NCBI GenBank assembly: GCA_022843175.1
Contig: JALHOE010000017.1
Coordinates: forward strand, 3,091 to 67,090
DNA length: 64,000 nucleotides
DNA from: Deltaproteobacteria bacterium
GTDB taxonomy: Bacteria > Myxococcota_A > Polyangia > Polyangiales > JADJMO01
Reading direction: 5' to 3'
Positions 10,283 through 40,157 of this stretch are shown piece by piece. The notes beneath the pieces are model-generated. The model was given only the letters and a program-made list of their open reading frames with translations, was not told the origin of the DNA and did not search any database. The stretch's first letter is position 1. Every line of letters starts with the position of its first letter. A program made the translations under genes and the position numbers.

Positions 10283-11460
<1,178 letters not shown>

Positions 11461-11464
<4 letters not shown>

Positions 11465-12459
11465 TTCGACCCTCCCACCGCGATCTTCGGTTGATCTCCC
11501 GGCGTCGTAGCGCGCAGATGAGGCGGAAGATAGCGCGAGAACCGGTAGTGCTCGCCGAGCGAGCTCCGGCCGTCGCGGGCGACCTTGATGGTGAACTTCG
11601 CCATCTCCTCGACACACCAGCTGAAGTGCGGCTCGAGCACCGACTCCTTGGCCATATCCGGGGCGGGGTTGGTGAAGTCGATCGCGTAGGGGATGCCGTC
11701 GCGGACGGCGAACTCGACGCTGTTCATGTCGTAGCCGAGCGCGTCGCAGATCTTGAAGGCGCCCTCGCGCACCTTCGCCTCGAGCTCCTTGGACATGAAC
11801 CCGCCGGGCGTCACCACGTAGCAGCGGCGCTTGGGGTCGTACTTGATGGGGAGAATCGCCTCACGGCCGATGCAGATGCAGCGGATGTACTCGTCGAAGT
11901 CGATGAACTCCTGGAGCGTCATCACGAGCTGCGCCGACGAGTCGTAGGCGCGCATGAGCTCTTCGAAATTCTTCACCACGTAGACGTCGCGCCAGCCGCC
12001 ACCGTCGGCCGGCTTGAGGATCGCGGGGAAGCCGACGTACTTCGTGATGGCCTCCCAATCGAGCGGGAACTCGAGGTTGCGCAGCGACCGGCTCTTGTCG
12101 ATCCGGTGCATGTAGTCCTTCTGGGGGAGCATCACGGTGCGCGGGACCGCGACGCCGAGCTTGCTCGCCAGCGAGTAGCCGAAGAACTTGTCGTCGGCGC
12201 TCCACCAGAACGGGTCGTTGATGACGTAGGTGCCCGAGAGCGCGGCCGCCTTGAGGTGGAAGCGGTAGTGCGGGATCTCCTGGCTGATGCGGTCGATCAG
12301 CACGCGGTAGGGGCTCTGCCAGTCCTCGGCGCGCGTCTCGCCGATCTTCGCGAGCTCCGCGACCACACCCGTCGACGACGACTCACGGTTCACGCGCTCG
12401 ATGAAGGCCGGCGGGAACGAGTTCTCCATCCCCACGAGCAGCCCGATTCGTTCCGGCAT
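11461..12459 (-). CDS. ATP-grasp domain protein (RimK/GshB-like peptide ligase fold)
   Basis: 332-aa ORF with ATP-grasp hallmarks: FPAILKPADGGGWRDVYVV, MTLQEFIDFDEYIRCICIG, NSVEFAVRDGIPYAIDFTNP. Confidence 0.8.
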
Positions 12460-12500
12460 AGACGCAGTTTCTCCCTTGGAAGGCCCCCGTATATCAGGTT

Positions 12501-12530
12501 AGGCGTTCGCTGGCGCGCGCGCCTATTTCT
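12501..12530. repeat. REP-like family 1, solo copy
   Basis: aggcgttcgctggcgcgcgcgcctatttct resembles unit 4 of the 4331-4365 array. Its end forms the TAG stop of the GATase gene (12523-12525, minus strand). Confidence 0.75.
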
Positions 12531-13290
12531 CGGGACCCGCCGAGCCCCGGACCGGGGTGCGAGGCTGCCGCACGAAGTTCGTGACGAAGTTGCGGAGCAG
12601 GCGGCGGGCGTGCGGGACGTCGACGACGTCGCGGTGGAGGCTCTCGGGGTCGAAGCCCTCGCCCCGGAGGAGGTCCATCCGCTGCTCGATGTAGCCGCGG
12701 GCGATCTGATCGCTGAACTCTGGATGAAATTGGACGGCGCGGGCGACCGGACCGGCGGAGAAGGCGTGGAGGTCGTCGTGGTCGGCCGTGACGAGCTTGG
12801 TCGTGCCCGGCGGCGGCACCGCGACGTGATCGCGATGCGAGACATTCACCTCGAACGCCTCGGGGAGCCCCTCGAACAAGGGGTCGTCGACGACCCGCCG
12901 CACCACCCGGCTGCCGATCGCGCGCCCGCGCGGGTTCTTGCGGACCTCGCCGCCGAGGGCGCTCGCCAGGATCTGATGTCCGAAGCACACGCCGAGGAGC
13001 GGCACCTGCTCCACCACTGCGCCGCGGAGCCAGGCCTCGAGGCGCGTCATCCACGGCTCGTCGAGCCGGTCGGTGACGCTCGAGGACGAGCCGGTGACGA
13101 TGATCCCCGCGAAGTTCTCGCGCGGGGGGAGGGGCGCCGAGACGTCGCGCGCGTCGAAGGTCGCCCATTCGCCCTCCCACGCGTCGCCGATCGCCTCGCG
13201 GAAGTGGCTGTCGAAGTCTCCGTGGCGCTCTTTGACGAGCGGAACGGTCGTCCCGGTGAAGAGGATGAGGAGGGGCTTCGTCGAAGGCAC
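12523..13290 (-). CDS. class I glutamine amidotransferase-like protein (GATase1)
   Basis: Nucleophile elbow LLGVCFGHQILA and the His-Glu pair in VQFHPEF. 255 aa. Confidence 0.85.
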   Translation of the reverse strand: MPSTKPLLILFTGTTVPLVKERHGDFDSHFREAIGDAWEGEWATFDARDVSAPLPPRENFAGIIVTGSSSSVTDRLDEPWMTRLEAWLRGAVVEQVPLLGVCFGHQILASALGGEVRKNPRGRAIGSRVVRRVVDDPLFEGLPEAFEVNVSHRDHVAVPPPGTTKLVTADHDDLHAFSAGPVARAVQFHPEFSDQIARGYIEQRMDLLRGEGFDPESLHRDVVDVPHARRLLRNFVTNFVRQPRTPVRGSAGPEK

Positions 13291-13416
13291 GGTGACAGCG
13301 AGCGTAGGGCACCCGTGGCCGGGCGTTCACGGGCCGGGCTTCCGCCCGTGAAAAAGCTCGGACGAGACAAATTGGTACATGCCGTGCTAACGGCTCGGCT
13401 CGGAGGCACTCCTCAA

Positions 13417-14139: not shown

Positions 14140-15216
14140 CTACTCCTCGGCCCGCGGCGGGCTGAGCGTGGTGTGCGCTCCGGTCAACCGCTCTTCGCGC
14201 GCGATACGGAGCGCCTCGACGAAGAGGCGCACGATGAGCGGGCCGAGCACGAGGCCCCACGCGCCGAACAGCGCGAGCCCGCCGAACATCGTCACGAGCA
14301 CCACGAACGACGGCAGATCGAGCTTGCCCCACCGGGAGAACACCGGGCGGAGGAAGTTGTCGATCATGCTGATCACGAGCACGCCGATCACCACCAGGGC
14401 GATCGCTGCACCGGTGCGACCGGTGAGCGCGAGACCCGCCGCCACCGGTGCCCACACGAGGCCGGTGCCGACCGACGGGATCAACGACGCGAAGAAGGTG
14501 ATGAGCCCGAGCACCAGCGCGCTCGGCACGCCGAGCACCAGGTAGGTCACGGTCGCGATCGAGGACTGGAGCAGGCCGGTGAGCACCACGCTGATGAGAA
14601 GGCCGCGGCCCGTCTCGTTGAACGCGTCGCCGAACCGATCGAAGAGCTCGGGGCGCACCGGCGCGTGCCGACGACACCACCGATACGCGCTCTCCCCGTC
14701 GACGAGGAACGTGTAAGCGCCGAGCAGGAACACGAAGAACGCGATGAACGCGCGGGCGGTCGCGCCTGCGATCAGATTGAGTGTCGTCCACGCGCGGGTG
14801 CCGTGCTGCCTGGCAAGCTCCAGCAGCTTCTCCGGCGCACGGAGCATGGCCCCGAGATCGAGGTTGTTGCCATCGCTCGAGACGATCGATTTGAGCGCGG
14901 CGGCACCGCCCTTCGACTGCATGGCCTTGTGCACGAGCTCGACGGCGCTCGATGCGAGCGACACGCCGATCAGCACGAGCGGCGCGAGCAGGAGCAGCAC
15001 CGCGAGCAGCACCACGAGGCCCGCGGCCCGACGTCGTTTGGCGAGGCGTTTTTCGCAGATCTTGTTCAGCAGCGGCCGGGTGAAATGCGCAAACCACGCG
15101 GCCAGCACCAACGGGGCCCACATCGGCACGAAGATCGCGAGCGCGCCGACGCCGAGCAGGATGAGGATGGTCTTGACGGCTTCGGGGTGATGCGGGTGCG
15201 AGACGCGTGCCGCCAT
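14140..15216 (-). CDS. AI-2E family transporter (PerM/UPF0118)
   Basis: Multi-TM protein with the family's typical C-terminal half: LIPSVGTGLVWAPVA...MIDNFLRPVF...LPSFVVLVTMFGGLALFGAWGLVLGP. Start set to ATG 15216 (MAARVSHPHHPEAVKT...). Confidence 0.8.
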   Translation of the reverse strand: MAARVSHPHHPEAVKTILILLGVGALAIFVPMWAPLVLAAWFAHFTRPLLNKICEKRLAKRRRAAGLVVLLAVLLLLAPLVLIGVSLASSAVELVHKAMQSKGGAAALKSIVSSDGNNLDLGAMLRAPEKLLELARQHGTRAWTTLNLIAGATARAFIAFFVFLLGAYTFLVDGESAYRWCRRHAPVRPELFDRFGDAFNETGRGLLISVVLTGLLQSSIATVTYLVLGVPSALVLGLITFFASLIPSVGTGLVWAPVAAGLALTGRTGAAIALVVIGVLVISMIDNFLRPVFSRWGKLDLPSFVVLVTMFGGLALFGAWGLVLGPLIVRLFVEALRIAREERLTGAHTTLSPPRAEE

Positions 15217-15287
15217 GACCGTGCGACGCACGGCGCGGACGGAGCGTTGCGCAGCGCGACCACTGCCATCTGCTAAGCTCCGCGCCC

Positions 15288-16226
15288 ATGTCGTCGCGTC
15301 GCCTTCTTTGGCTTGCTCCGCTCTTCGTGGCCGCGTGCAGCTCTGCGGATCCGCCCGCCTCGTCCGCAACCGACACCGGCACCGCCGCCTCGGACACCGG
15401 TCCGGTCTCCGACACGGCGGCGGACACCCGGCCCACGAAGGTGCCCTGCAGCGAGCCGCCGGACGAGCGCCCCGCGGGCTCCGTCTGCGTGATGACGGTC
15501 ACCGGCAAGGTCGTCGACCCGGCCGGCGCGCCGGTCGCCGGCAAGCTCGTGTCGGTGTGCGGCTCGATCTGCTTCTTCGGCGAGACGAAGGCCGACGGCA
15601 CCTTCAGCGCCGACGTCGGCTCCTACATCAAGGTCGCGAACTTCGCGGCGTCGGTCCACGGCCGTCCCACGCACGCGAGCCTCTACGAGAAGCTCCCCGT
15701 CTCGGGCATGGGCGACATCGCGCTCCCGGCCACGATGATCCTCCCCACCGTCCCCGCGACCGGCACGCTCATCCCGAACGAGAAGCGCATCGTCACCGCG
15801 GCCGGGCCGATCACCCACGGCGATCTCACCCTCACGTTCCAGAGCGGCACCGAGATGGAGCTCGACCTCGAGGACGTCGAACTCACCATGGCCGGCAAGG
15901 GCGGCGATCACCTCCGCGCCGTGAAGGTCGAAGAGAAGGACTACCCGGCGTTCGTGAAGGGCGCGAACGTGAAGCTCCTCTACGCGGCCACGCCGTTCGA
16001 CGCGAAATTCAACAAGAAGGTCGCGGTGACGATCAACGCGACCGGTGGCCTCGCCGAGGGCACCGCCGTCGAGCTGATTGGCCTCGGCAACGAGTTCCTC
16101 AAGGAGCCGTTCACCGCGGGCGTCGTCGAGGTCGTCGCGACCGGCAAGGTCACCGGCGGCAAGATCGTCACCGACGCGGGCCAGGGCCTCAGCACGCTCA
16201 CCTGGGTTGGCGTGAGGGCAAAATGA
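15288..16226 (+). CDS. hypothetical lipoprotein (CarboxypepD_reg-like segment)
   Basis: Lipobox LFVAACSS and an acidic DTG linker. VTGKVVDPAGAPVAGKLVSVCG...TKADGTFS resembles a carboxypeptidase-regulatory-like beta-sandwich. The stop overlaps the next start (ATGA). Confidence 0.7.
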   Translation: MSSRRLLWLAPLFVAACSSADPPASSATDTGTAASDTGPVSDTAADTRPTKVPCSEPPDERPAGSVCVMTVTGKVVDPAGAPVAGKLVSVCGSICFFGETKADGTFSADVGSYIKVANFAASVHGRPTHASLYEKLPVSGMGDIALPATMILPTVPATGTLIPNEKRIVTAAGPITHGDLTLTFQSGTEMELDLEDVELTMAGKGGDHLRAVKVEEKDYPAFVKGANVKLLYAATPFDAKFNKKVAVTINATGGLAEGTAVELIGLGNEFLKEPFTAGVVEVVATGKVTGGKIVTDAGQGLSTLTWVGVRAK

Positions 16227-16975
16227 AGCGCTTTGCTCTCCTCCTCCTCATCGCGGGCTGCGGCGGCAGCTCCGACGCGCCCGCTTCTTCCTCGGAGGCG
16301 GACACCGGCGTCGCGAGCGACACCGCCACGGCCCCCGGCGACACGACCACCGAACCGACCGACTCCGCAGAGCCCCCGGCCGACAGCGTGGCGACCGAGG
16401 TCGCGACCGACACGCTCCCCGACGACACCGGCATCACCTTCGGCCCCTACCCGGCAGGCCCCTACGGCAACAAGGTGGGCGACGTCGTCGCGAACCTCAC
16501 GTGGGAGGGCTACGTCAACCCGCTGGCCGACAGCCTCGCGAACACCAAGCCGTACGTCACCACGGACATGGACAAGCTGCGGCGCGACGCGAAGAAGGGG
16601 TACGCGCTCGTCCATGTCTCGGAGTTCTTCTGACCCGGCTGTCGCAACGGGGCCCGTGATTTGGCCTCGCAGGGAAAGTCAGTGGTGGACGCGGGCGGTG
16701 CGATCGTCGAGGTGCTCGCGTCGAACGGAGGCGGCGCGCCGACGAAGGCGAACCTCAACGCGTGGGTCACGACCTACAACGTCCCGGTGACCTCGGTGAT
16801 CGACTCGCCGTCGAGCACCAAGACGCTCACGTTCTTCGGCATCCGCGAGACCTGCGTGGTCGTCGACGTCCGCACGATGAAGATCGTGAAGAAGGTCAAC
16901 GGCTCGGTCGCCGGCACCGGCGACTCCAGCGTCAAGCAGCTGATCCCCGAGATCCTCAAGCTGCTCGCCGGGTAA
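16223..16975 (+). CDS. TlpA-like thioredoxin-fold lipoprotein with in-frame TGA (probable selenocysteine, UPGC)
   Basis: The tail of ORF 15215..16633 and ORF 16661..16975 share a frame. Only TGA 16631-16633 separates them. Lipobox LLLIAGCGGS. Read-through gives YALVHVSEFF-U-PGCRNGARDL, matching WCxxCR of TlpA/ResA/CcmG-type redoxins, and the rest of the fold lies downstream. Confidence 0.7.
16648..16669 (+). promoter_or_regulatory. candidate bacterial SECIS hairpin
   Basis: cggggcc (16648-16654) pairs with ggcctcg (16663-16669): 7 bp including one G-U. The 8-nt loop cgugauuu contains GU. The stem starts 14 nt after the TGA. Folded by eye only. Confidence 0.4.
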
Positions 16976-17021: not shown

Positions 17022-17119
17022 TTCCGATCTACTCGCTATACGCGTTAGTTCGGCAAGTGGGGCGCGGTTGCGCTGTGTCCGAACTCGCCGAACTAACGCG
17101 TATAGCGAGTAGATCGGAA
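17022..17119. repeat. perfect 33-bp inverted repeat (long hairpin / MITE-like), lower GC than surroundings
   Basis: ttccgatctactcgctatacgcgttagttcggc (17022-17054) is the exact reverse complement of 17087-17119, with a 32-nt loop. It is intergenic, between the stop at 16975 and the start at 17261. Confidence 0.9.
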
Positions 17120-20842: not shown

Positions 20843-21621
20843 GGTACCTCGCGGCGCTCCTCCTCGTCGCGTGCAGCGAGGCTTCGACCCCCGCGGCCGA
20901 GCCCGACACCGCGGTCGAGCCCGCAGCCGACGCCGACACCGCAGCCGACGCAGTTGCCGACGCCGCTGCCGATGCCGCTGCCGACGCCGACGCCGACGCC
21001 GATGCCGCGGCCGATGCCGATGCCGATGCCGATGCCGATGCCGCTGCGTCGCCGTGTCCCGCGGACATGGTCGGCGTCGACACGTTCTGCATCGATCGCT
21101 ACGAGGCGCCGAACGTGGCCGGTGCCAAGCCGCTCGCCTTCCAGATCGCGCCCGAGGGCGAGGCGTGGTGCAAGGCGCGCGGCAAGAGGCTGTGCAGCGA
21201 GGCCGAGTGGGTTCGCGCGTGTCAGGGCGCGGCCAAGCTCGCGTACCCCTACGGCGCGACCTACAAGCGCTCCACCTGCAACGACGACAAGGTCTGGAAG
21301 TCGCCGAGCTGGTCGACGCTCGGCACCTACCCGAGCGACGCGGCAAAGGCCGAGGCGGCGCGGCTCTATCAGGCCGATCCGAGCGGCGCGCGCACCGGCT
21401 GTGCCTCGGAGGACGGCGTCATGGACCTCACCGGCAACGTGGCCGAGTGGGTGACGCGCTCGTTCCCCAACGCGAACAACTACGACCACGTCATGAAGGG
21501 CTGCTACTGGTCGGGATGTTATGGCGGCGCGCCGCCGAGCTGCGGGTTCGTCAACCCTGCCCACCCCGGGGGCTTCCGCACCTACGAAGCGGGGTTTCGC
21601 TGCTGCTCCAAGAAATCGTGA
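20839..21621 (+). CDS. formylglycine-generating enzyme (SUMF1/EgtB/PvdO) family lipoprotein
   Basis: The ATG overlaps the upstream stop (ATGA). Lipobox LLLVACSE and an (Ala-Asp)n linker. FGE-sulfatase-type motifs: FCIDRYEAPN, RLCSEAEW, DLTGNVAEWV, GFRCC. Confidence 0.8.
   Translation: MRYLAALLLVACSEASTPAAEPDTAVEPAADADTAADAVADAAADAAADADADADAAADADADADADAAASPCPADMVGVDTFCIDRYEAPNVAGAKPLAFQIAPEGEAWCKARGKRLCSEAEWVRACQGAAKLAYPYGATYKRSTCNDDKVWKSPSWSTLGTYPSDAAKAEAARLYQADPSGARTGCASEDGVMDLTGNVAEWVTRSFPNANNYDHVMKGCYWSGCYGGAPPSCGFVNPAHPGGFRTYEAGFRCCSKKS
20923..21048 (+). repeat. GCNGAY hexanucleotide microsatellite encoding (Ala-Asp)n
   Basis: Near-perfect gccgac/gccgat run with its core at 20980-21042. 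It encodes ADAADAAADADADADAAADADADADADAA inside the FGE-like lipoprotein linker. Confidence 0.85.
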
Positions 21622-21653: not shown

Positions 21654-22343
21654 ATGCGCCTCCTTCTCGCCCTCCTTCTCGTCGGCTGCGGCTCTGCCGA
21701 GACCGCGGCGCCCTCGTCGGCCGACACCGGCGCTTCTTCGACCGATACCGACGTCGTCGCCGACACCGAGACCCCGACCGATACCGACGTCGTCGCCGAC
21801 ACCCGGGACACCGGCACGGCGCCGACCCATCCGGCCGGTCCCTACGGCACCGCGGTCGGCGAGGTGGTCGCGAACCTCGAGCTCGAGGGCTACGTCCGCT
21901 ATGCGCCCACGACCGGCCTCGCGACGACCGCGACCTACGGGCCCACGTCGTTCGCCGCCATCCGCGCCGCGTCGCCGAAGAAGTACGCGATCGTCCACGT
22001 CTCGGGCTTCACCTGAGGCGGTTGCCGGGGCGCGGTCCGCGACCTCCTCGTTCCGAAGTACCCCGAAGTGGCCGACAAGGCGATCGTGGTGGAGCTCCTC
22101 GCCGAGGGCAGCCCCTCGCACACGTCGCCGACCACGACCGACAACCTCAATAACTGGATCACCACCTTCTCGGTCCCGTTCACCACGCTCCGCGATCCCG
22201 ACGGCGTCGGCCTGCGGATCGTGAAGGACTTCGCGCCGCGCGAGAACACGTTCGTGATCGAGCTCGCCACGATGAAGGTGCTCTACCGCGGCTACGGCTA
22301 CACGAAGGTGCAGGGCGCCGTCGATCTCGTGAAGACTTTGTGA
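21654..22343 (+). CDS. TlpA-like thioredoxin-fold lipoprotein with in-frame TGA (probable selenocysteine, UGGC)
   Basis: The tail of ORF 20871..22016 and ORF 22068..22343 share a frame. Only TGA 22014-22016 separates them. Lipobox LLLVGCGS. Read-through gives YAIVHVSGFT-U-GGCRGAVRDLLVPKYPEV..AIVVELL, with the thioredoxin-fold remainder downstream. Paralogue of 16223..16975. Confidence 0.7.
22027..22046 (+). promoter_or_regulatory. candidate bacterial SECIS hairpin
   Basis: ggggcgcg (22027-22034) pairs with cgcg-a-ccuc (22038-22046), leaving an apical g-g-u-c region. It starts 10 nt after the TGA. gagg (22015-22018) can additionally pair with ccuc (22046-22049). Folded by eye only. Confidence 0.4.
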
Positions 22344-22372: not shown

Positions 22373-22834
22373 ATGTTGAAGGTTGGCGACCGCGCCCCCG
22401 CCATCGATCTGCCGTCGTCCGCCGGCTCGGTGTTCCACCTCTCGGAGCGCACCGCCGCGGGCCGCTGGGTCGTGCTCTACTTCTTCCCGGCAGCGTTCAC
22501 CCCCGGCTGCACGGCGGAGTCCAAGCGCTTCCGCGACAACACGCCCGAGCTGAGCGTGCTCGGCGCAGACGTGATCGGCATCTCCACCGACGACGCCAAG
22601 ACGCAGTGCCGCTTCGCCGAGTCGTTGCAGGTCTCCTTCCCGCTCCTGGCCGACGAGGGCGGCAAGCTCTCGCGCGCCTACGGCGTGCTCTGGCCGCTCC
22701 TCGCGAAGCCGCGTCGAGCCACCTTTGTCATCAGCCCGCGCGGCGTGATCGAGGCGGTGTTCTGGCACGAGATCCAGGTGAACAAACACCTCGACGACGT
22801 GTTCGCGTTCCTCCGCAAGCGCATCGCGGCGTAG
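22373..22834 (+). CDS. bcp: thioredoxin-dependent peroxiredoxin Bcp
   Basis: LKVGDRAPAIDLPS...VVLYFFPAAFTPGCTAES...GISTDD is a typical Bcp/PrxQ sequence. Start set to ATG 22373. Confidence 0.85.
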   Translation: MLKVGDRAPAIDLPSSAGSVFHLSERTAAGRWVVLYFFPAAFTPGCTAESKRFRDNTPELSVLGADVIGISTDDAKTQCRFAESLQVSFPLLADEGGKLSRAYGVLWPLLAKPRRATFVISPRGVIEAVFWHEIQVNKHLDDVFAFLRKRIAA

Positions 22835-25845: not shown

Positions 25846-28632
25846 TCAGCCGATCAGGATGAGCGGACCAGAGATGGTGACCCCCTCGGCCGTCGCGTAC
25901 AACGACGCCCCGCCGGATGCGAGGTTGGCCCCGGTGGTCGTGAGCGTGAGACCCGTCTCCTCTGCCATCAGGAACACAGTGGCTGGGGCGTCCACGGTGA
26001 AGTCGCCGACGATGGTGACCTCGGCCGAGGTGATCGTCGTCTCGGCCTCGGCGGTGATTTCGAGCGTCGGCGACTCGATCTCCATCGATGCCGCGGCGTT
26101 GATCTCCACCGAGGGTGACTCGATCGACACGGTGGCCTCGGCGGTCAGCTCGATGCCTGCCTCGGCCTCGATCAAGACGTCGGCGGTCTCGATCGACGCC
26201 TTGACCTCGGAGCTGATGTTGAGCGCTCCCTGGGGCGTGAATTGGATCACGTTCCCCGGCGAGGGCTGGATCGTGATGCCGCTCGCCGGCATGAGCTGAA
26301 TGCTCGCGGGCGTGGTGTGCAGCCGGATCTTCTCCTTCGAGCTGACCTCGACTTCCTTGATGCCGGCGACCGCGGCGTGCTCCGAGGTCACCGTGGCGCG
26401 CTCGGCGCCGAACATGGTGGCGACCTCGCCGTACACGAACGCTCGCTTCTCACCGGAGAGCACCGCCGATCCATCGGAGCCGATGAGGTTGAACGGGGAC
26501 TCGAGCTCGTCATCGAGGCTGGCCTTGGCCCCGGCGACGATCGTGTTGCAGTTGGACGACATGAACAGCCCGACGTTCGCGGCGATGGCCTTCTTCTTGT
26601 AGTACTCGACGATCACGTCGCACACGAAGCTCACCAGTCTGGTGCCGGCGCCCACCGCTCCGCCGAGCGCGCCGAGCGTGTTCTCGACCACCTGCGAGGC
26701 CTGCTCGAGCCGCTCCTCGGCTTCCTCGAGGTGCTCGAGGCGCTCCTTCTTGTCGTCGAGGTCCTTCTGCTTCTTCTCGACATCCTCGGCGTCGGGCGGC
26801 TGCACAGCGCGGGCCTGCTCGAGCGCCGACGCGGCGTCGTCGCGGTCCTTGGTCGCCTTCTCGACCTCGGCCGAGAGCACCGCCTTGGTCGGCTGCTCCA
26901 CGGTGGCGAGACCCGCCTCGGCCAGGCTCTCGATGAGCTCGGTGACGGCCTCGCCCATCTCCATGATCGCCTTGATGCGCTCGGGAACGGTCTTGCCCGC
27001 GAGCGAGACGAGGTTGCCGCTGATCAGCGCCTGCCGCGCCGACAACAGCGAGTTCCCGGTGGACACCGCGGCGCTCGCCGACTTGGTGATCGCGGTGAAG
27101 TTCGCCTCGGTCGCGAGGTGGATGCCCTCCTCCGGCGCGTTGGGCGCTCCGAGCTGCAGCACCGTGGAGTGCCGCGGCGTGGAGAGCTTGATCCGCTCGG
27201 CGCCCTTCTGATCGTCGAGGTGGATCTCGTTGTTGCTCCCGGTGCGGATGACGTTCTTGGTCGCGTTGGTCTGGGTGACCGGGCTCGGCGTGAGGGGGTT
27301 GGGCACGCAGGCCGCGATCACGGGGCGGTCGGGATCGCCGTCGACGAACGCGATCAGGACCTCGACGCCGGGGCGGAGGGGAAAGTGCATGCCGTAGCCG
27401 GGACCGGCGTGCGACTGCGCCATGCGGATCGGCAGCGAGGCGTGGCCGTCGTTGAGCCCGCTCTGATCGAACAGCAGCTTCACACGGTAGCGGCCGTGCT
27501 CGTCGAGCTCGGCGTACTCGCCCTTCTGCGCGGCATCGATCGTGCCGGTCAACAGGCCGCGCACGTGCGGTCGGGGCGTACGGCGTGCCGGTCGGAACGG
27601 CACGCTCGCGGGGATCGCGTGGAACCGACCGTCGTAGACGCGCCCGCCCACCTCGCCACCGTCGTGGGCGACGAAGCGACCCTCGAGCTCGGTGATGAGC
27701 AAGCCGAGCGTTCCGCGCCCGGCGCTCTCGACGTCCACGCGCGCTCCTGCGAACAGGATCGGCAACGAGCAGACGCCCTGGTAGACGTCACGGCCCGCCG
27801 CGATCTCCTCGGCGCGTACGCGCGCGAGGTGCCGCCCGACTTCGGGCGACAAGTAGTTGGGCCCGTACTCGTAGACCTCGTCCCCGAGGCCGCCCTGGAC
27901 CTTCGCGTCGGCGACGAGCGCGAGCATCGGACGGCTGTAGTCGTAGTCGTCGAGGCGCACCGCGGACGGCAGGGCCGAGACGCGCCGGCGCAGCTCGTGA
28001 ACCCCGTGGCCCGAGCGCCGCGGGTCGTGCACGATCGATCTCTGCACGTCGACACCCACCGACGAGTCGACGAAGCGCACGACGTCGCGCGAGTCCTCGG
28101 TGACGAAGTAGAAGGTGATGCCGGACTGCTCGGTGAGCCGCGCGAGGAACGCGAGATCGCTCTCCTCGTACTGGACGACGAACTCGCGCGAGGGATAGTG
28201 CGCGTCGAGGTCGATCGAGAAGTCCTGACCCTCGACCAGCTCCGCGTGGCCGAGGATCTCCCGCAGCAGCTGGGGCACGTTCTTGTCGCGGAACACACGC
28301 AGCCGGCGGTTGAGCGATAGCAGATGCAGCCGGGGGACCACCCGGAGCGCGAAGAACGAGAACTGACCGGTGGGGTCGCCGGTCAGGAGGTCGTCGACCG
28401 ACGCCACCACACCGGCGATGGATCGCAGCACCTCATTGTCCTCGACGAGGTCGATCCGGACCGCCGTGCCCACCCACCCGTCGACCTCCGGCGCGGCGCC
28501 GCCGACCTCGAGCGTGAGCTCGGCGTCGAAGGGGCGCGACAGCCCTTCGCGGAGGACCATCTCGCGCACGAGAAGGGGTCGCCCCTCGAGCGCAGGGCCG
28601 GAGATCTTCACGTCGAGCACGGAGTGGTCCAT
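25846..28632 (-). CDS. vgrG: VgrG (TssI)-like spike protein with coiled-coil insertion
   Basis: gp27-like N-terminus (REGLSRPFDAELTL, EFVVQYEESDLAFLARLTEQSGITFYF). gp5 OB-fold (PGVEVLIAFVDGDPDRPVI). C-terminal beta-helix-type repeats (IETADVLIEAEAGIELTAEATVSIESPSVEI). Lys/Glu-rich helical insert (DVEKKQKDLDDKKERLEHLEEAEERLEQ). Confidence 0.85.
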   Translation of the reverse strand: MDHSVLDVKISGPALEGRPLLVREMVLREGLSRPFDAELTLEVGGAAPEVDGWVGTAVRIDLVEDNEVLRSIAGVVASVDDLLTGDPTGQFSFFALRVVPRLHLLSLNRRLRVFRDKNVPQLLREILGHAELVEGQDFSIDLDAHYPSREFVVQYEESDLAFLARLTEQSGITFYFVTEDSRDVVRFVDSSVGVDVQRSIVHDPRRSGHGVHELRRRVSALPSAVRLDDYDYSRPMLALVADAKVQGGLGDEVYEYGPNYLSPEVGRHLARVRAEEIAAGRDVYQGVCSLPILFAGARVDVESAGRGTLGLLITELEGRFVAHDGGEVGGRVYDGRFHAIPASVPFRPARRTPRPHVRGLLTGTIDAAQKGEYAELDEHGRYRVKLLFDQSGLNDGHASLPIRMAQSHAGPGYGMHFPLRPGVEVLIAFVDGDPDRPVIAACVPNPLTPSPVTQTNATKNVIRTGSNNEIHLDDQKGAERIKLSTPRHSTVLQLGAPNAPEEGIHLATEANFTAITKSASAAVSTGNSLLSARQALISGNLVSLAGKTVPERIKAIMEMGEAVTELIESLAEAGLATVEQPTKAVLSAEVEKATKDRDDAASALEQARAVQPPDAEDVEKKQKDLDDKKERLEHLEEAEERLEQASQVVENTLGALGGAVGAGTRLVSFVCDVIVEYYKKKAIAANVGLFMSSNCNTIVAGAKASLDDELESPFNLIGSDGSAVLSGEKRAFVYGEVATMFGAERATVTSEHAAVAGIKEVEVSSKEKIRLHTTPASIQLMPASGITIQPSPGNVIQFTPQGALNISSEVKASIETADVLIEAEAGIELTAEATVSIESPSVEINAAASMEIESPTLEITAEAETTITSAEVTIVGDFTVDAPATVFLMAEETGLTLTTTGANLASGGASLYATAEGVTISGPLILIG

Positions 28633-28813
28633 CGTGGTCCTCGCGCGGGTGTCGAGTCTCTCAGACTACCGAAGCTCGCTGGCGCATCAGCAACAACCCC
28701 TCTCCGAGCTACACCTCGGACGGCCGCGTGTCGCCGCGACGTCTCTGACGGCGCGACGCATATCATGCAACGCGCTAAGCCTCCCCGGTGTGGCGCGCCG
28801 TGGCTCCCGAGGA

Positions 28814-37923: not shown

Positions 37924-38084
37924 CGCCTTTCGTTGGACGTGGGGAGCCGCGAAACCTTCACCGAATATCTCTCACGATTCAGGCGGGTTCGTTCTCGGGC
38001 TGCTGTTCGTCTTGCCGCTTTCGGCCGCTACGCAGGCTTCGCGCGTGAACTGTCGGGTCCAGGCCGATCGGGTAGGCTCTCGAT

Positions 38085-40157
38085 GTGATCCGACTGCCGA
38101 CGGCCGCCGTCGCCGCCCTTCGGTCGCGCTTGTCGGCGCGCGCGGGCCGGCTTCCGCGCACTCTCGAGGGCGACGCGCTCGATGCTGCGCTCGTCGAGGA
38201 ATACGGCCCGCTCTGCGAGGCGATGTACCTGGTGATGGCGGCGGACGGCACGCTCGCCAGCGTCGAGCGCGACGTGATCCGCGGGGCGCTCCGTGAGCTC
38301 GACGAGCGGCTGCGCTCGCGGCACGTCGAGACGATGATGCGCGAAGCGCACGACGCGCTGACGCGCGACGGATGGACCGCGCGCCTTGCAGAGCTCTCGC
38401 GCACGCTGGCGGGCGATGCGGCGCGCTCGGAGGGCGCAGTCCTCCTCGGAGCCGCAGTGGCGTTCGCCGACAGCGTGTTCTCCGACGACGAGAACCACGT
38501 GATCTCGCTGCTCATGACGTCCCTGCGGATCGATCAGGCGCGCCGCGACGAGTTCATCATGATGCTCGAGAACGTCGACTCGAAGATGGCCGACGATCCG
38601 AAGGCCGACCCAGCCGACCTGTCGCTCCACGCCGCGATGCGACTGCACGCGCCCGAGGACCTCGAGTCGCTCGCCGCGAGTTGGGCCAAACGGCCCGAGG
38701 TGGCCTCGGTCATGCGCCTCTATGCGAGCTTCGTTCGCAGCTGTGAGGAGCTGCTCGAGAAGGCGACGTTGATGCCGAGCTCGATCTCGGCGGCGCGAAT
38801 CGGAGCCCTCCGAACGTTCGCCGAGGCGCTGCCCGATGGGCCGAGCCCGCGCCTCGACGATCTGCGCCAGGCGTTCGGCAGGCTCTCGGGCGCGCTCGAG
38901 TACGTCAATCGCACCACCGGGCTGCGGCCGATGGTCGATCCGAATCAGTCGCCGGCCCCGATCGTGGCGCTCGAGCTCGCGCTCGCCCGGGTAGCCCAGA
39001 TGGTCACGCGTGCGGAGCGGCGGCTCGGCCGCCTCACGGAGCTCACGCCGATCCCCGGGGATCTGAAGCCGGCCATCGAGGCGGTCGTCGCCACCCACAC
39101 GCCGGACGCGCGCCGCGCGCTGCACGAGGCGATCGAGCGCACCGCCGAGTGGTGCGCACATGCGCTCCCGGGGCCGGTGTCGGCGACGCTCGATCATGCG
39201 CTGCGAAGGTTGCCGCAGATGCCGATCGAGCGACCGAGCGCGCAGCCGCCGCCCGAGAGCGACGAAGCGCCGCTCCCCGAGTGGGTGCCGAGCAGGCGCA
39301 CCATCGGCGGGTTCTACCTCATCCGCCCGCTCGGATCGGGCAGCACTGCCAGCGTCTTCGTGGTGTGCCGCGCCGAGGACCGCGAAGAGAAGAATCCGCA
39401 GCACTTCGCCCTCAAGGTGCCGCAGTTCGACGCGGTCGCGGCGCAGAGCGTGTCGGAGTCGGAGTTCTTCGCGCTGTTCCGCGAGGAGGCGGGCGCGCTC
39501 CTCGCGCTCCCCGACCACCCGAACCTCGCCGGGTTCGTCACCTTCGACGCGCGCGCACGGCCCAAGCCGATCCTGGTGATGGAGCTCATCGAGGGCGTCG
39601 ATTGCGACACGCTGCTCCGCGAGAAGCGCATGGACGCGCCGCGCGCGCTCTCGATCCTCGACGGCGTGCTGTGCGGCCTCGCCGAGATGCACGCGCGGGG
39701 CATCGGTCACCTCGACATCAAACCCTCCAACGTGGTGCTCCGCGACGGCAAGGAGCCGGTGCTCGTCGACTTCGGCCTGGCCGGGCGTCGCATCCGGCCG
39801 TGGTGCGCCACGCCTCCGTACGCAGCGCCCGAGGTGTGGGGTCACGTCGTGAGCGGGCGCGCGACGCCGATGAGCGCCGACGTCTACGCGTTCGGATGCC
39901 TCGCTTGGGAGCTCCTCACCGGTCGTCCGCTGTTCGACGGTCCGAACGCGACCAGCTTGATGCACACCCACCTCGGCCACGACGGCGGACCGGAAGAGCT
40001 GCGCAAGTTGATCCGAGATCCCGCGCGACGCGCGCTCGCGACCGCGATCTCGGCCTGTCTGCGGAAAGATCCCGAGTCACGTCCCGCGGTCGAGACGCTT
40101 CGCCTCGAGTTCAAGCGTATCGCTGCGAGCGCGACCGCGACGTGGCCCCTCGCGTGA
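38085..40157 (+). CDS. Ser/Thr protein kinase with N-terminal TerB-like domain
   Basis: The N-terminus YGPLCEAMYLVMAADGTLASVERDVIRGAL resembles the TerB/DjlA-N fold. Kinase motifs: GSGSTASVF, FALKVP, HLDIKPSNVVL (non-RD), DFGLAG, YAAPEV. Confidence 0.85.
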   Translation: MIRLPTAAVAALRSRLSARAGRLPRTLEGDALDAALVEEYGPLCEAMYLVMAADGTLASVERDVIRGALRELDERLRSRHVETMMREAHDALTRDGWTARLAELSRTLAGDAARSEGAVLLGAAVAFADSVFSDDENHVISLLMTSLRIDQARRDEFIMMLENVDSKMADDPKADPADLSLHAAMRLHAPEDLESLAASWAKRPEVASVMRLYASFVRSCEELLEKATLMPSSISAARIGALRTFAEALPDGPSPRLDDLRQAFGRLSGALEYVNRTTGLRPMVDPNQSPAPIVALELALARVAQMVTRAERRLGRLTELTPIPGDLKPAIEAVVATHTPDARRALHEAIERTAEWCAHALPGPVSATLDHALRRLPQMPIERPSAQPPPESDEAPLPEWVPSRRTIGGFYLIRPLGSGSTASVFVVCRAEDREEKNPQHFALKVPQFDAVAAQSVSESEFFALFREEAGALLALPDHPNLAGFVTFDARARPKPILVMELIEGVDCDTLLREKRMDAPRALSILDGVLCGLAEMHARGIGHLDIKPSNVVLRDGKEPVLVDFGLAGRRIRPWCATPPYAAPEVWGHVVSGRATPMSADVYAFGCLAWELLTGRPLFDGPNATSLMHTHLGHDGGPEELRKLIRDPARRALATAISACLRKDPESRPAVETLRLEFKRIAASATATWPLA

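Follow-up and report, generated by a model that had tools for sequence, protein, structure and literature searches.

Among predicted bacterial selenoproteins, the commonest are thioredoxin-fold proteins with selenocysteine (Sec, U) in a UxxC motif and with cysteine homologues. The described families include peroxiredoxin (Prx)-like thiol:disulfide oxidoreductase selenoproteins of the PF00578 type, carrying UxxC or UxxU (PMC13188914, Table 1; PMC1794560), and the Rcas_1661 family (NF041057) appears in PMC13188914 as a 'DsbG-like protein'. Sec users listed within the Myxococcota include Anaeromyxobacter (10-12 selenoproteins), Plesiocystis pacifica (6) and Haliangium ochraceum (3), together with Myxococcus, Corallococcus and other members of the phylum (PMC5029168, Supplementary file 3). 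Here we analyse a 64,000-nucleotide stretch of DNA from Deltaproteobacteria bacterium (assembly GCA_022843175.1, contig JALHOE010000017.1, positions 3,091 to 67,090; hereafter the window), in which two paralogous loci, A and B, very probably encode selenoproteins belonging to an uncurated family of this well-known thioredoxin-fold UxxC class (PMC13188914, Table 1). With the Prx-like selenoproteins both loci share an AhpC/TSA-type thioredoxin fold, Sec as the first residue of UxxC, abundant Cys homologues, prediction by the logic of Sec/Cys pairs and occurrence in 'delta-proteobacterial' lineages. They differ from them in encoding lipoproteins with a long disordered tether, in being paired with a specific gene for a four-Cys lipoprotein, and in scoring below threshold or not at all against PF00578; the comparison was one of profile score and architecture.

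We hold with good confidence that each locus is one gene for a lipid-anchored extracytoplasmic thioredoxin-fold protein, whose in-frame UGA is most likely recoded as Sec. The features concerned, in window positions, are as follows.

16223..16975, forward strand: locus A, predicted single gene for a 250-residue Sec-containing thioredoxin-fold lipoprotein (stop TAA 16973-16975)
16223..16261, forward strand: lipoprotein signal peptide of locus A, MKRFALLLLIAGC, read from the translation (lipobox Cys codon 16259-16261)
16631..16633, forward strand: in-frame TGA of locus A, putative Sec, position 1 of the U-P-G-C motif (TGA in 50 of 52 related loci)
16640..16642, forward strand: TGT of locus A, Cys at +3 of U-x-x-C, presumed resolving residue (invariant column C65 of alignment A4)
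21654..22343, forward strand: locus B, paralogous gene for a predicted 229-residue Sec lipoprotein with signal MRLLLALLLVGC (stop TGA 22341-22343)
22014..22016, forward strand: in-frame TGA of locus B, U-G-G-C motif (Cys codon TGC 22023-22025; the Cys homologue P0191 is continuous here)

In the list of open reading frames (ORFs) of the window, ORFs 15215..16633 and 16661..16975 lie in the same frame, and the translation of 16223-16975 reads MKRFALLLLIAGC...KKGYALVHVSEFF-stop-PGCRNGARDL...KLLAG-stop, its sole internal stop being the TGA at 16631-16633. The translation of locus B, MRLLLALLLVGC...KKYAIVHVSGFT-stop-GGCRGAVRDL...VKTL, also has a single internal stop, the TGA at 22014-22016, which falls in the same aligned column as the TGA of locus A; the two loci are about 38% identical and both keep a full-length frame. 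An earlier interpretation made from the letters of this DNA (hereafter the sequence-only reading) had proposed exactly this, namely two same-frame ORFs joined across a lone TGA into a 250-residue read-through lipoprotein and a paralogue with a TGA at the same aligned position, and translation bore out both proposals. The lipobox pattern [LVI][ASTVI][GAS]C is satisfied by LIAGC in locus A, where the Cys is codon 13, and by LVGC in locus B, and the lipobox Cys is nearly invariant among homologues; judged from this motif, the locus A product would undergo signal cleavage and lipidation. A relaxed scan of the whole window returned only two TGAs, those of loci A and B, with a coding signature on both sides and a redox motif, and other same-frame ORF pairs joined by a TGA (at 1940, 40155 and 52570) were rejected as ordinary adjacent genes. 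Since TGA is the commonest stop among the well-supported ORFs of the window, the genetic code is not reassigned.

The codon aligned to the window TGA was examined in 52 related loci, 27 of them from metagenomes and 25 from genomes that represent species; these 25 are all Myxococcota, most of them with the label Polyangiales or Polyangiaceae. This codon is TGA in 23 of the 25 genome loci and in all 27 metagenome loci (50/52 overall) and Cys in the remaining two, L020 and the distant L025, while TAA or TAG occurs there in none of the 52. Wherever the contig reaches it, the next stop lies 106-122 in-frame codons past the TGA and is preceded by a conserved ...LLG C-terminus. Downstream of the TGA the frames encode intact thioredoxin-fold sequence, with a G+C content at third codon positions (GC3) of about 0.93, and the peptide that follows directly, PGCRNAARDLAAQG, is conserved, with the consensus PGC(R/Q)NAARDLAAQG. 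Two TGA-containing paralogues, L016 and L017, are present on different contigs of the metagenome-assembled genome CAZDNG01. In L018, a Sec form, the conserved frame is lost in the C-terminal half (about 10380-10530), which may reflect a frameshift pseudogene or an assembly error.

A first protein search was performed with the read-through sequence in which U was replaced by C. About 19 of the proteins matched were each about 137 residues long and all terminated exactly at ..VHVSEF[FYLGS], and three longer ones continued with Cys: P0003 (..HVSDFVCPGCQHAARQL..), P0006 (..HVSEFYCPGCQHAAKQL..) and P0008 (..HVSDFNCAGCRHAATQL..). The Cys forms of type A, that is P0003, P0006, P0008 and L020, read ..HVSDF.C.GC.. 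across the junction, and both L053 genes are likewise continuous; this metagenome contig carries two tandem Cys-form (CPGC) paralogues, at 524-1405 and 1430-2224. The Cys forms of type B (P0191, P0186, P0187 and P0189) are also continuous across the site, P0191 reading VIHVSGFTCSAC at the junction of locus B and, over the longer stretch recovered by an exhaustive search, ..KKHAVIHVSGFTCSACKTDAVDF...ADKAIFVELIADG. Full-length Cys homologues of both types thus align across the TGA, and the outcome that the sequence-only reading had set against itself, a family with no member continuous at this point, did not materialise. The locus B search also gave C-terminal fragments with at most 64% identity, presumably Sec forms elsewhere. 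A profile search yielded many C-terminal fragments of about 100 residues as well as a large all-Cys sister group of 220-250-residue lipoproteins, annotated as 'AhpC/TSA' or 'redoxin', with WCGVC; P0068 and P0143 among the matches are the window's own products. In a rough neighbour-joining tree the type A Cys forms (L020, L053, L054 and P0003) formed one clade inside the Sec forms, and locus B grouped with the B-type Cys forms. This nested pattern fits interconversion of Sec and Cys, and the position of the type A clade suggests reversion from Sec to Cys.

We also compared the family with known thioredoxin-fold proteins. The Pfam family AhpC-TSA (PF00578) matched locus A at 19.8-20.9 bits, below the cut-off of 26, and gave no match to locus B; weak matches were obtained for 21 of 32 family members. 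In the copy of NCBIfam release 20.0 that was searched no model recognises the family, the DsbE/ResA models matching only 1-2 of the 32 members, and those weakly. Against the Protein Data Bank (PDB), the family profile matched Bacillus subtilis ResA (E 1e-4) with U aligned to the first Cys of C-E-P-C. An AlphaFold2 (AF2) structure was computed for the Cys form P0008, standing in for the read-through proteins. In this model (predicted local distance difference test score, pLDDT, 96.4) a strand at 43-50 leads to helix 54-72, whose start carries C53-x-x-C56, and the top Foldseek matches were ResA, DsbE, CcmG and Prx, with template modelling (TM) scores of 0.64-0.81 (target-normalised) to ResA/DsbE/CcmG. 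Either half on one side of the TGA would be an incomplete thioredoxin fold.

TlpA/ResA/CcmG (DsbE) proteins are therefore the best profile and structural match, and they share with loci A and B a CxxC at the N-terminus of helix 1 and membrane anchoring outside the cytoplasm, the Cys sister group having WCGVC. The family differs from them in having Sec for the first Cys, in its sporadic and weak DsbE/ResA scores in NCBIfam, and in that no cytochrome c maturation or cytochrome oxidase genes were present nearby among the Pfam-scanned ORFs of the window. A further difference concerns the cis-Pro site, where, in a weak alignment, ResA LPTTF is matched with IRETxF/IRETxxVV of the family, a nearly invariant Arg-Glu pair (R133 and E134, at least 90% conserved); the WCGVC sister group retains Pro there (TPLNMLVD), again in a weak alignment. 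The family Arg stands at a place resembling the conserved Arg of peroxiredoxins, but an hhalign comparison with the Bcp encoded in the window was weak (probability 3.5%), and against the peroxiredoxin motif PxxxTxxC the family, weakly aligned, has the Arg at the expected place and UxxC instead of TxxC. Because of the Arg-Glu at the cis-Pro site and the weak Bcp alignment we term the protein a TlpA/Prx-like redoxin and not a member of either family. Of the TlpA/ResA/CcmG assignment made by the sequence-only reading, the fold and the position of the motif stood, and strict membership did not, given the sub-threshold Pfam scores and the Arg-Glu pair.

Two other described groups are more distant. 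The Rcas_1661 (seleno)lipoprotein family NF041057 shares the concept of a lipoprotein resembling thioredoxin whose UxxC motif holds Sec or Cys, but loci A and B reached only 13-15 bits against its cut-off of 190, and only over the signal peptide and low-complexity N-terminus, which rules out membership. TlpA-like-fold selenoproteins predicted from metagenomes, compared by description only, share the type of fold, and one of them has U-G-C in place of the U-P-G-C found here.

The region downstream of the TGA was analysed for a selenocysteine insertion sequence (SECIS). The model for bacterial SECIS elements (bSECIS) comprises a loop of 3-9 nucleotides, a stem of 4-16 base pairs and a G in the first two loop positions (PMC13188914), with a spacing of 16-37 nucleotides and a minimum free energy (MFE) of at most -7.5 kcal/mol (PMC13188914, legend of Fig. 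2). Two structures were considered.

16648..16669, forward strand: SECIS-like hairpin of locus A, 7-bp stem pairing 16648-16654 with 16663-16669, 8-nucleotide loop CGUGAUUU
22015..22055, forward strand: hairpin-capable region of locus B, two alternative folds by RNA folding

In locus A the strands CGGGGCC (16648-16654) and GGCCUCG (16663-16669) pair in a stem that begins 14 nucleotides past the TGA, and RNA folding predicted as the local structure precisely the hairpin that the sequence-only reading had proposed. Its loop of 8 nucleotides, stem of 7 bp, G at loop position 2, loop start 21 nucleotides past the UGA and MFE of about -12 to -13.5 kcal/mol all lie within the bSECIS limits. The stem was recovered by RNAalifold from a codon-registered alignment of 25 sequences, with 92.9% of cells paired in this register compared with 31-42% when the register was slid. 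It was intact at 7/7 pairs in all 26 distinct sequences of the main type, and synonymous recoding with the codon usage of the window gave a mean of 5.46/7 pairs and about 3 of 26 fully paired sequences, none of 2000 recoded sets reaching the observed value; the sequences are related, which overstates their independence in this test, and constraint at wobble positions is nevertheless shown. Among 37 distinct sequences, three different types of hairpin occupy the same place: the main type, ACG(C/G)GGCC-CGKGAYYU-GGCYRYG; a second one, confined to one clade, CCGCCCA(G)-GGUCY-(C)UGGGCGG, in which L052 has a compensatory C-G to G-C swap; and a third one in L047, GCUCGGC-AGUUG-GCCGAGC.

Several observations weigh against recoding as Sec and against the function that we propose. 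Covariation is slight, a single pair of the main type changing on both sides (CG to GC or GU) among related sequences. The folding energy of the locus A hairpin is ordinary for DNA of about 69% G+C (z-score +0.36; 118 of 200 shuffles at least as stable), so that the hairpin is meaningful only through its conservation; MFE tests with synonymous recoding of single sequences were not significant (p 0.07-0.37), and Cys forms fold about equally stably, in other registers. An initial indication that Cys forms fold worse was dropped, as it held for a 33-nucleotide sub-window only and not for 45 nucleotides. In locus B the hairpin is ambiguous between two folds, of which either or neither may be used: in the MFE fold (22015-22049) the loop lies only 13 nucleotides past the UGA, and in the alternative GGUC-CGC-GACC (22034-22044), with a lower stem 22026-22032/22049-22055, it lies in the register of locus A. 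The machinery for Sec is also missing from the DNA at hand. Within the 64-kb window there was no tRNA by ARAGORN, no Rfam match, and no sel gene among about 40 ORFs scanned with Pfam; tblastn with Escherichia coli SelD and SelA gave no match in 619 kb of window and related loci; and neither the window nor about 555 kb of related loci, the only DNA covered, yielded selA, selB, selD or tRNA-Sec. ARAGORN applied to the 25 genome loci gave tRNA-Phe and one spurious call, and no tRNA-Sec. The spurious call, a 94-nucleotide 'tRNA-Arg (ccg)' on the reverse strand of L023 (4715-4808), is probably a false positive, as it looks like G+C-rich coding DNA. Support for Sec machinery comes at the level of the lineage, from the Sec-using Myxococcota, and in the literature searched no paper combining 'selenoprotein' and 'Polyangia' was found. 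As regards function, searches with the four-Cys partner by Foldseek and profile gave no informative structural match, only a generic beta-sandwich N-terminal domain, and the role of the locus A and B proteins is proposed by analogy of fold.

The alternative that best survives these observations is that UGA is read through by a near-cognate or suppressor tRNA inserting Cys, Trp or another residue, the hairpin merely slowing termination. Such a reading would be compatible with the Sec machinery not having been found in the window or related loci and with the unremarkable energy of the hairpin, and in most loci the UGA is followed by C, a weak context for termination. However, the UGA falls exactly on the redox Cys of CxxC and the Cys forms branch from within the TGA forms, together a hallmark of exchange between Sec and Cys; the hairpin fits the bSECIS model down to the G in the first two loop positions, and synonymous sites are constrained so as to preserve it. 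Moreover, we know of no dedicated non-Sec recoding of UGA at redox sites in bacteria, and Sec use is widespread in the phylum (PMC5029168). On balance we regard this alternative as improbable.

Even less probable, in our view, is that two separate genes are present, with a short N-terminal lipoprotein ending at the TGA and a C-terminal protein starting independently downstream. Gene callers and GenBank annotate the loci in this way, P0009 and P0074 being recorded as the adjacent 'hypothetical proteins' ACXWUG_20560 and ACXWUG_20565 (MGZ3452339.1 and MGZ3452340.1), and an in-frame TTG or GTG does follow in some loci. However, the first in-frame ATG, GTG or TTG after the TGA varies among loci from codon 10 to codon 27, so that a separately initiated downstream protein is not conserved; in L001 and L002 it comes only after the active-site motif, within helix 1, and a restart in some genomes would yield a protein without the active site. 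In addition, the conserved peptide begins right at the TGA, the half proteins would be incomplete thioredoxin folds, and the Cys homologues are single proteins. Orthologues that end at this codon and are followed by a gene of their own, a pattern that the sequence-only reading had considered, are thus not supported, owing to the drift of the start-like codon. The splitting of a homologue's gene in two by the public annotation indicates instead that the family is systematically mis-annotated.

Pseudogenes or sequencing errors, with two nonsense mutations in decaying paralogues, are scarcely credible and are refuted for practical purposes by the comparative data since, in spite of the frameshift in the C-terminal half of L018, more than 20 species-level genomes and numerous metagenomes, 50 loci in all, keep the same TGA with intact downstream frames and high GC3, and loci A and B have both remained full-length at about 38% identity, which agrees with the earlier argument that two independent nonsense mutations at one codon are unlikely.

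Recoding of UGA as Sec is therefore the interpretation that we favour, and the TGA/Cys correspondence, the conservation on both sides of the TGA and the conserved hairpin all support the selenoprotein proposed by the sequence-only reading. What we infer about the insertion of Sec, the location in the cell, the redox chemistry and the substrate can be outlined as follows. During translation the UGA would be recoded as Sec, with the GC-rich hairpin, located within the coding sequence 14 nucleotides downstream, recruiting SelB with Sec-tRNA(Sec) as in other bacterial selenoprotein mRNAs. Each protein would consist of a long, disordered tether rich in Asp, Thr and Pro and a thioredoxin-fold domain, whose active site would be Sec-x-x-Cys at the start of the first helix. 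The mature protein would most likely be a selenol/thiol oxidoreductase cycling through a selenenylsulfide between U and the Cys at +3, and its redoxin task might be to reduce disulfides in a periplasmic client or to reduce peroxides in the manner of glutathione peroxidase (GPx) or Prx. The most obvious candidate client or partner would be the four-Cys beta-sandwich lipoprotein encoded by the gene immediately upstream, with which locus A would be co-transcribed.

15288..16226, forward strand: upstream partner gene for a 312-residue lipoprotein with four conserved Cys (stop overlapping the ATG of locus A, ATGA)

In 39 related loci, the Cys-form loci L020 and L053 included, the gene immediately preceding the redoxin gene encodes a homologue of this partner. 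At least 85% of 27 orthologues retain residues C54, C67, C91, C95, H124, R126, P127, W306 and R310, and C67, C91, C95, R126, P127 and W306 are invariant in them, two of the Cys being spaced as C91-x3-C95. The Pfam scan assigned no family to the protein as a whole; profile-versus-PDB and Pfam comparisons gave a weak match of its N-terminal domain to CarboxypepD_reg and SusC-NTE-like beta-sandwiches, and its AF2 model is all-beta (pLDDT 87.9). It is conceivable, although we consider it unlikely, that the gene pair, coding for the four-Cys beta-sandwich lipoprotein and for the U-x-x-C redoxin with Arg-Glu at the cis-Pro site, constitutes a previously unrecognised extracytoplasmic redox module of Polyangiales and not a routine disulfide reductase; it could be, for example, a Se-dependent periplasmic peroxidase or a chalcogen- or metal-handling system. 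If that were true, bacteria of soil and freshwater that are largely aerobic would employ Sec in an extracytoplasmic role.

The neighbours of locus B, on the same strand, are different from those of locus A.

20860..21621, forward strand: gene for an FGE-sulfatase-like lipoprotein (formylglycine-generating enzyme type), upstream flank of locus B (Pfam scan)
22373..22834, forward strand: gene for a Bcp-type peroxiredoxin (AhpC-TSA, E 1.6e-34)

The start of the Bcp gene, placed from the beginning of the Pfam match, is likely the ATG at 22373, 29 nucleotides past the stop of locus B, and the gene is probably co-transcribed with locus B. These two flanking genes suggest a second redox operon with neighbours unlike those of locus A.

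Other elements of the window were also recorded. A 37-nucleotide inverted repeat, 97% complementary and with a 24-nucleotide spacer, lies at 17022-17119 in the 285-nucleotide gap between locus A and a metallophosphoesterase gene. The window holds just one copy of it and none of the related loci has any, the corresponding gap of L001 measuring only about 70 nucleotides; the repeat might act as a terminator or represent a small insertion. Farther away are a VgrG-like gene with Phage_GPD and Phage_base_V domains (25846-28665, reverse strand), a gene for a Ser/Thr kinase with an N-terminal TerB domain (38076-40157, forward strand) and, at 10283-13326 on the reverse strand, a cluster that combines a class-I glutamine amidotransferase gene with one resembling GCS2 glutamate-cysteine ligases and with an ORF that matches ATP-grasp (CPSase_L_D2) weakly.

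Loci A and B do not represent a new kind of system, nor do they overturn current understanding. Recognition of the family would correct records that are now split into two meaningless 'hypothetical proteins' and, as there is no model for it in NCBIfam 20.0, dozens of Polyangiales genomes probably carry the same annotation error. It would also add a lipoprotein family to the list of bacterial selenoproteins and extend the documented use of Sec to a protein located outside the cytoplasm, in a branch of the Myxococcota that has been little studied and is mostly uncultured. The Sec and Cys forms nested in one clade would provide a ready comparison set for the contribution of selenium to a CxxC-type site, and the tightly linked four-Cys partner gene would offer a specific candidate substrate, and with it a concrete lead.

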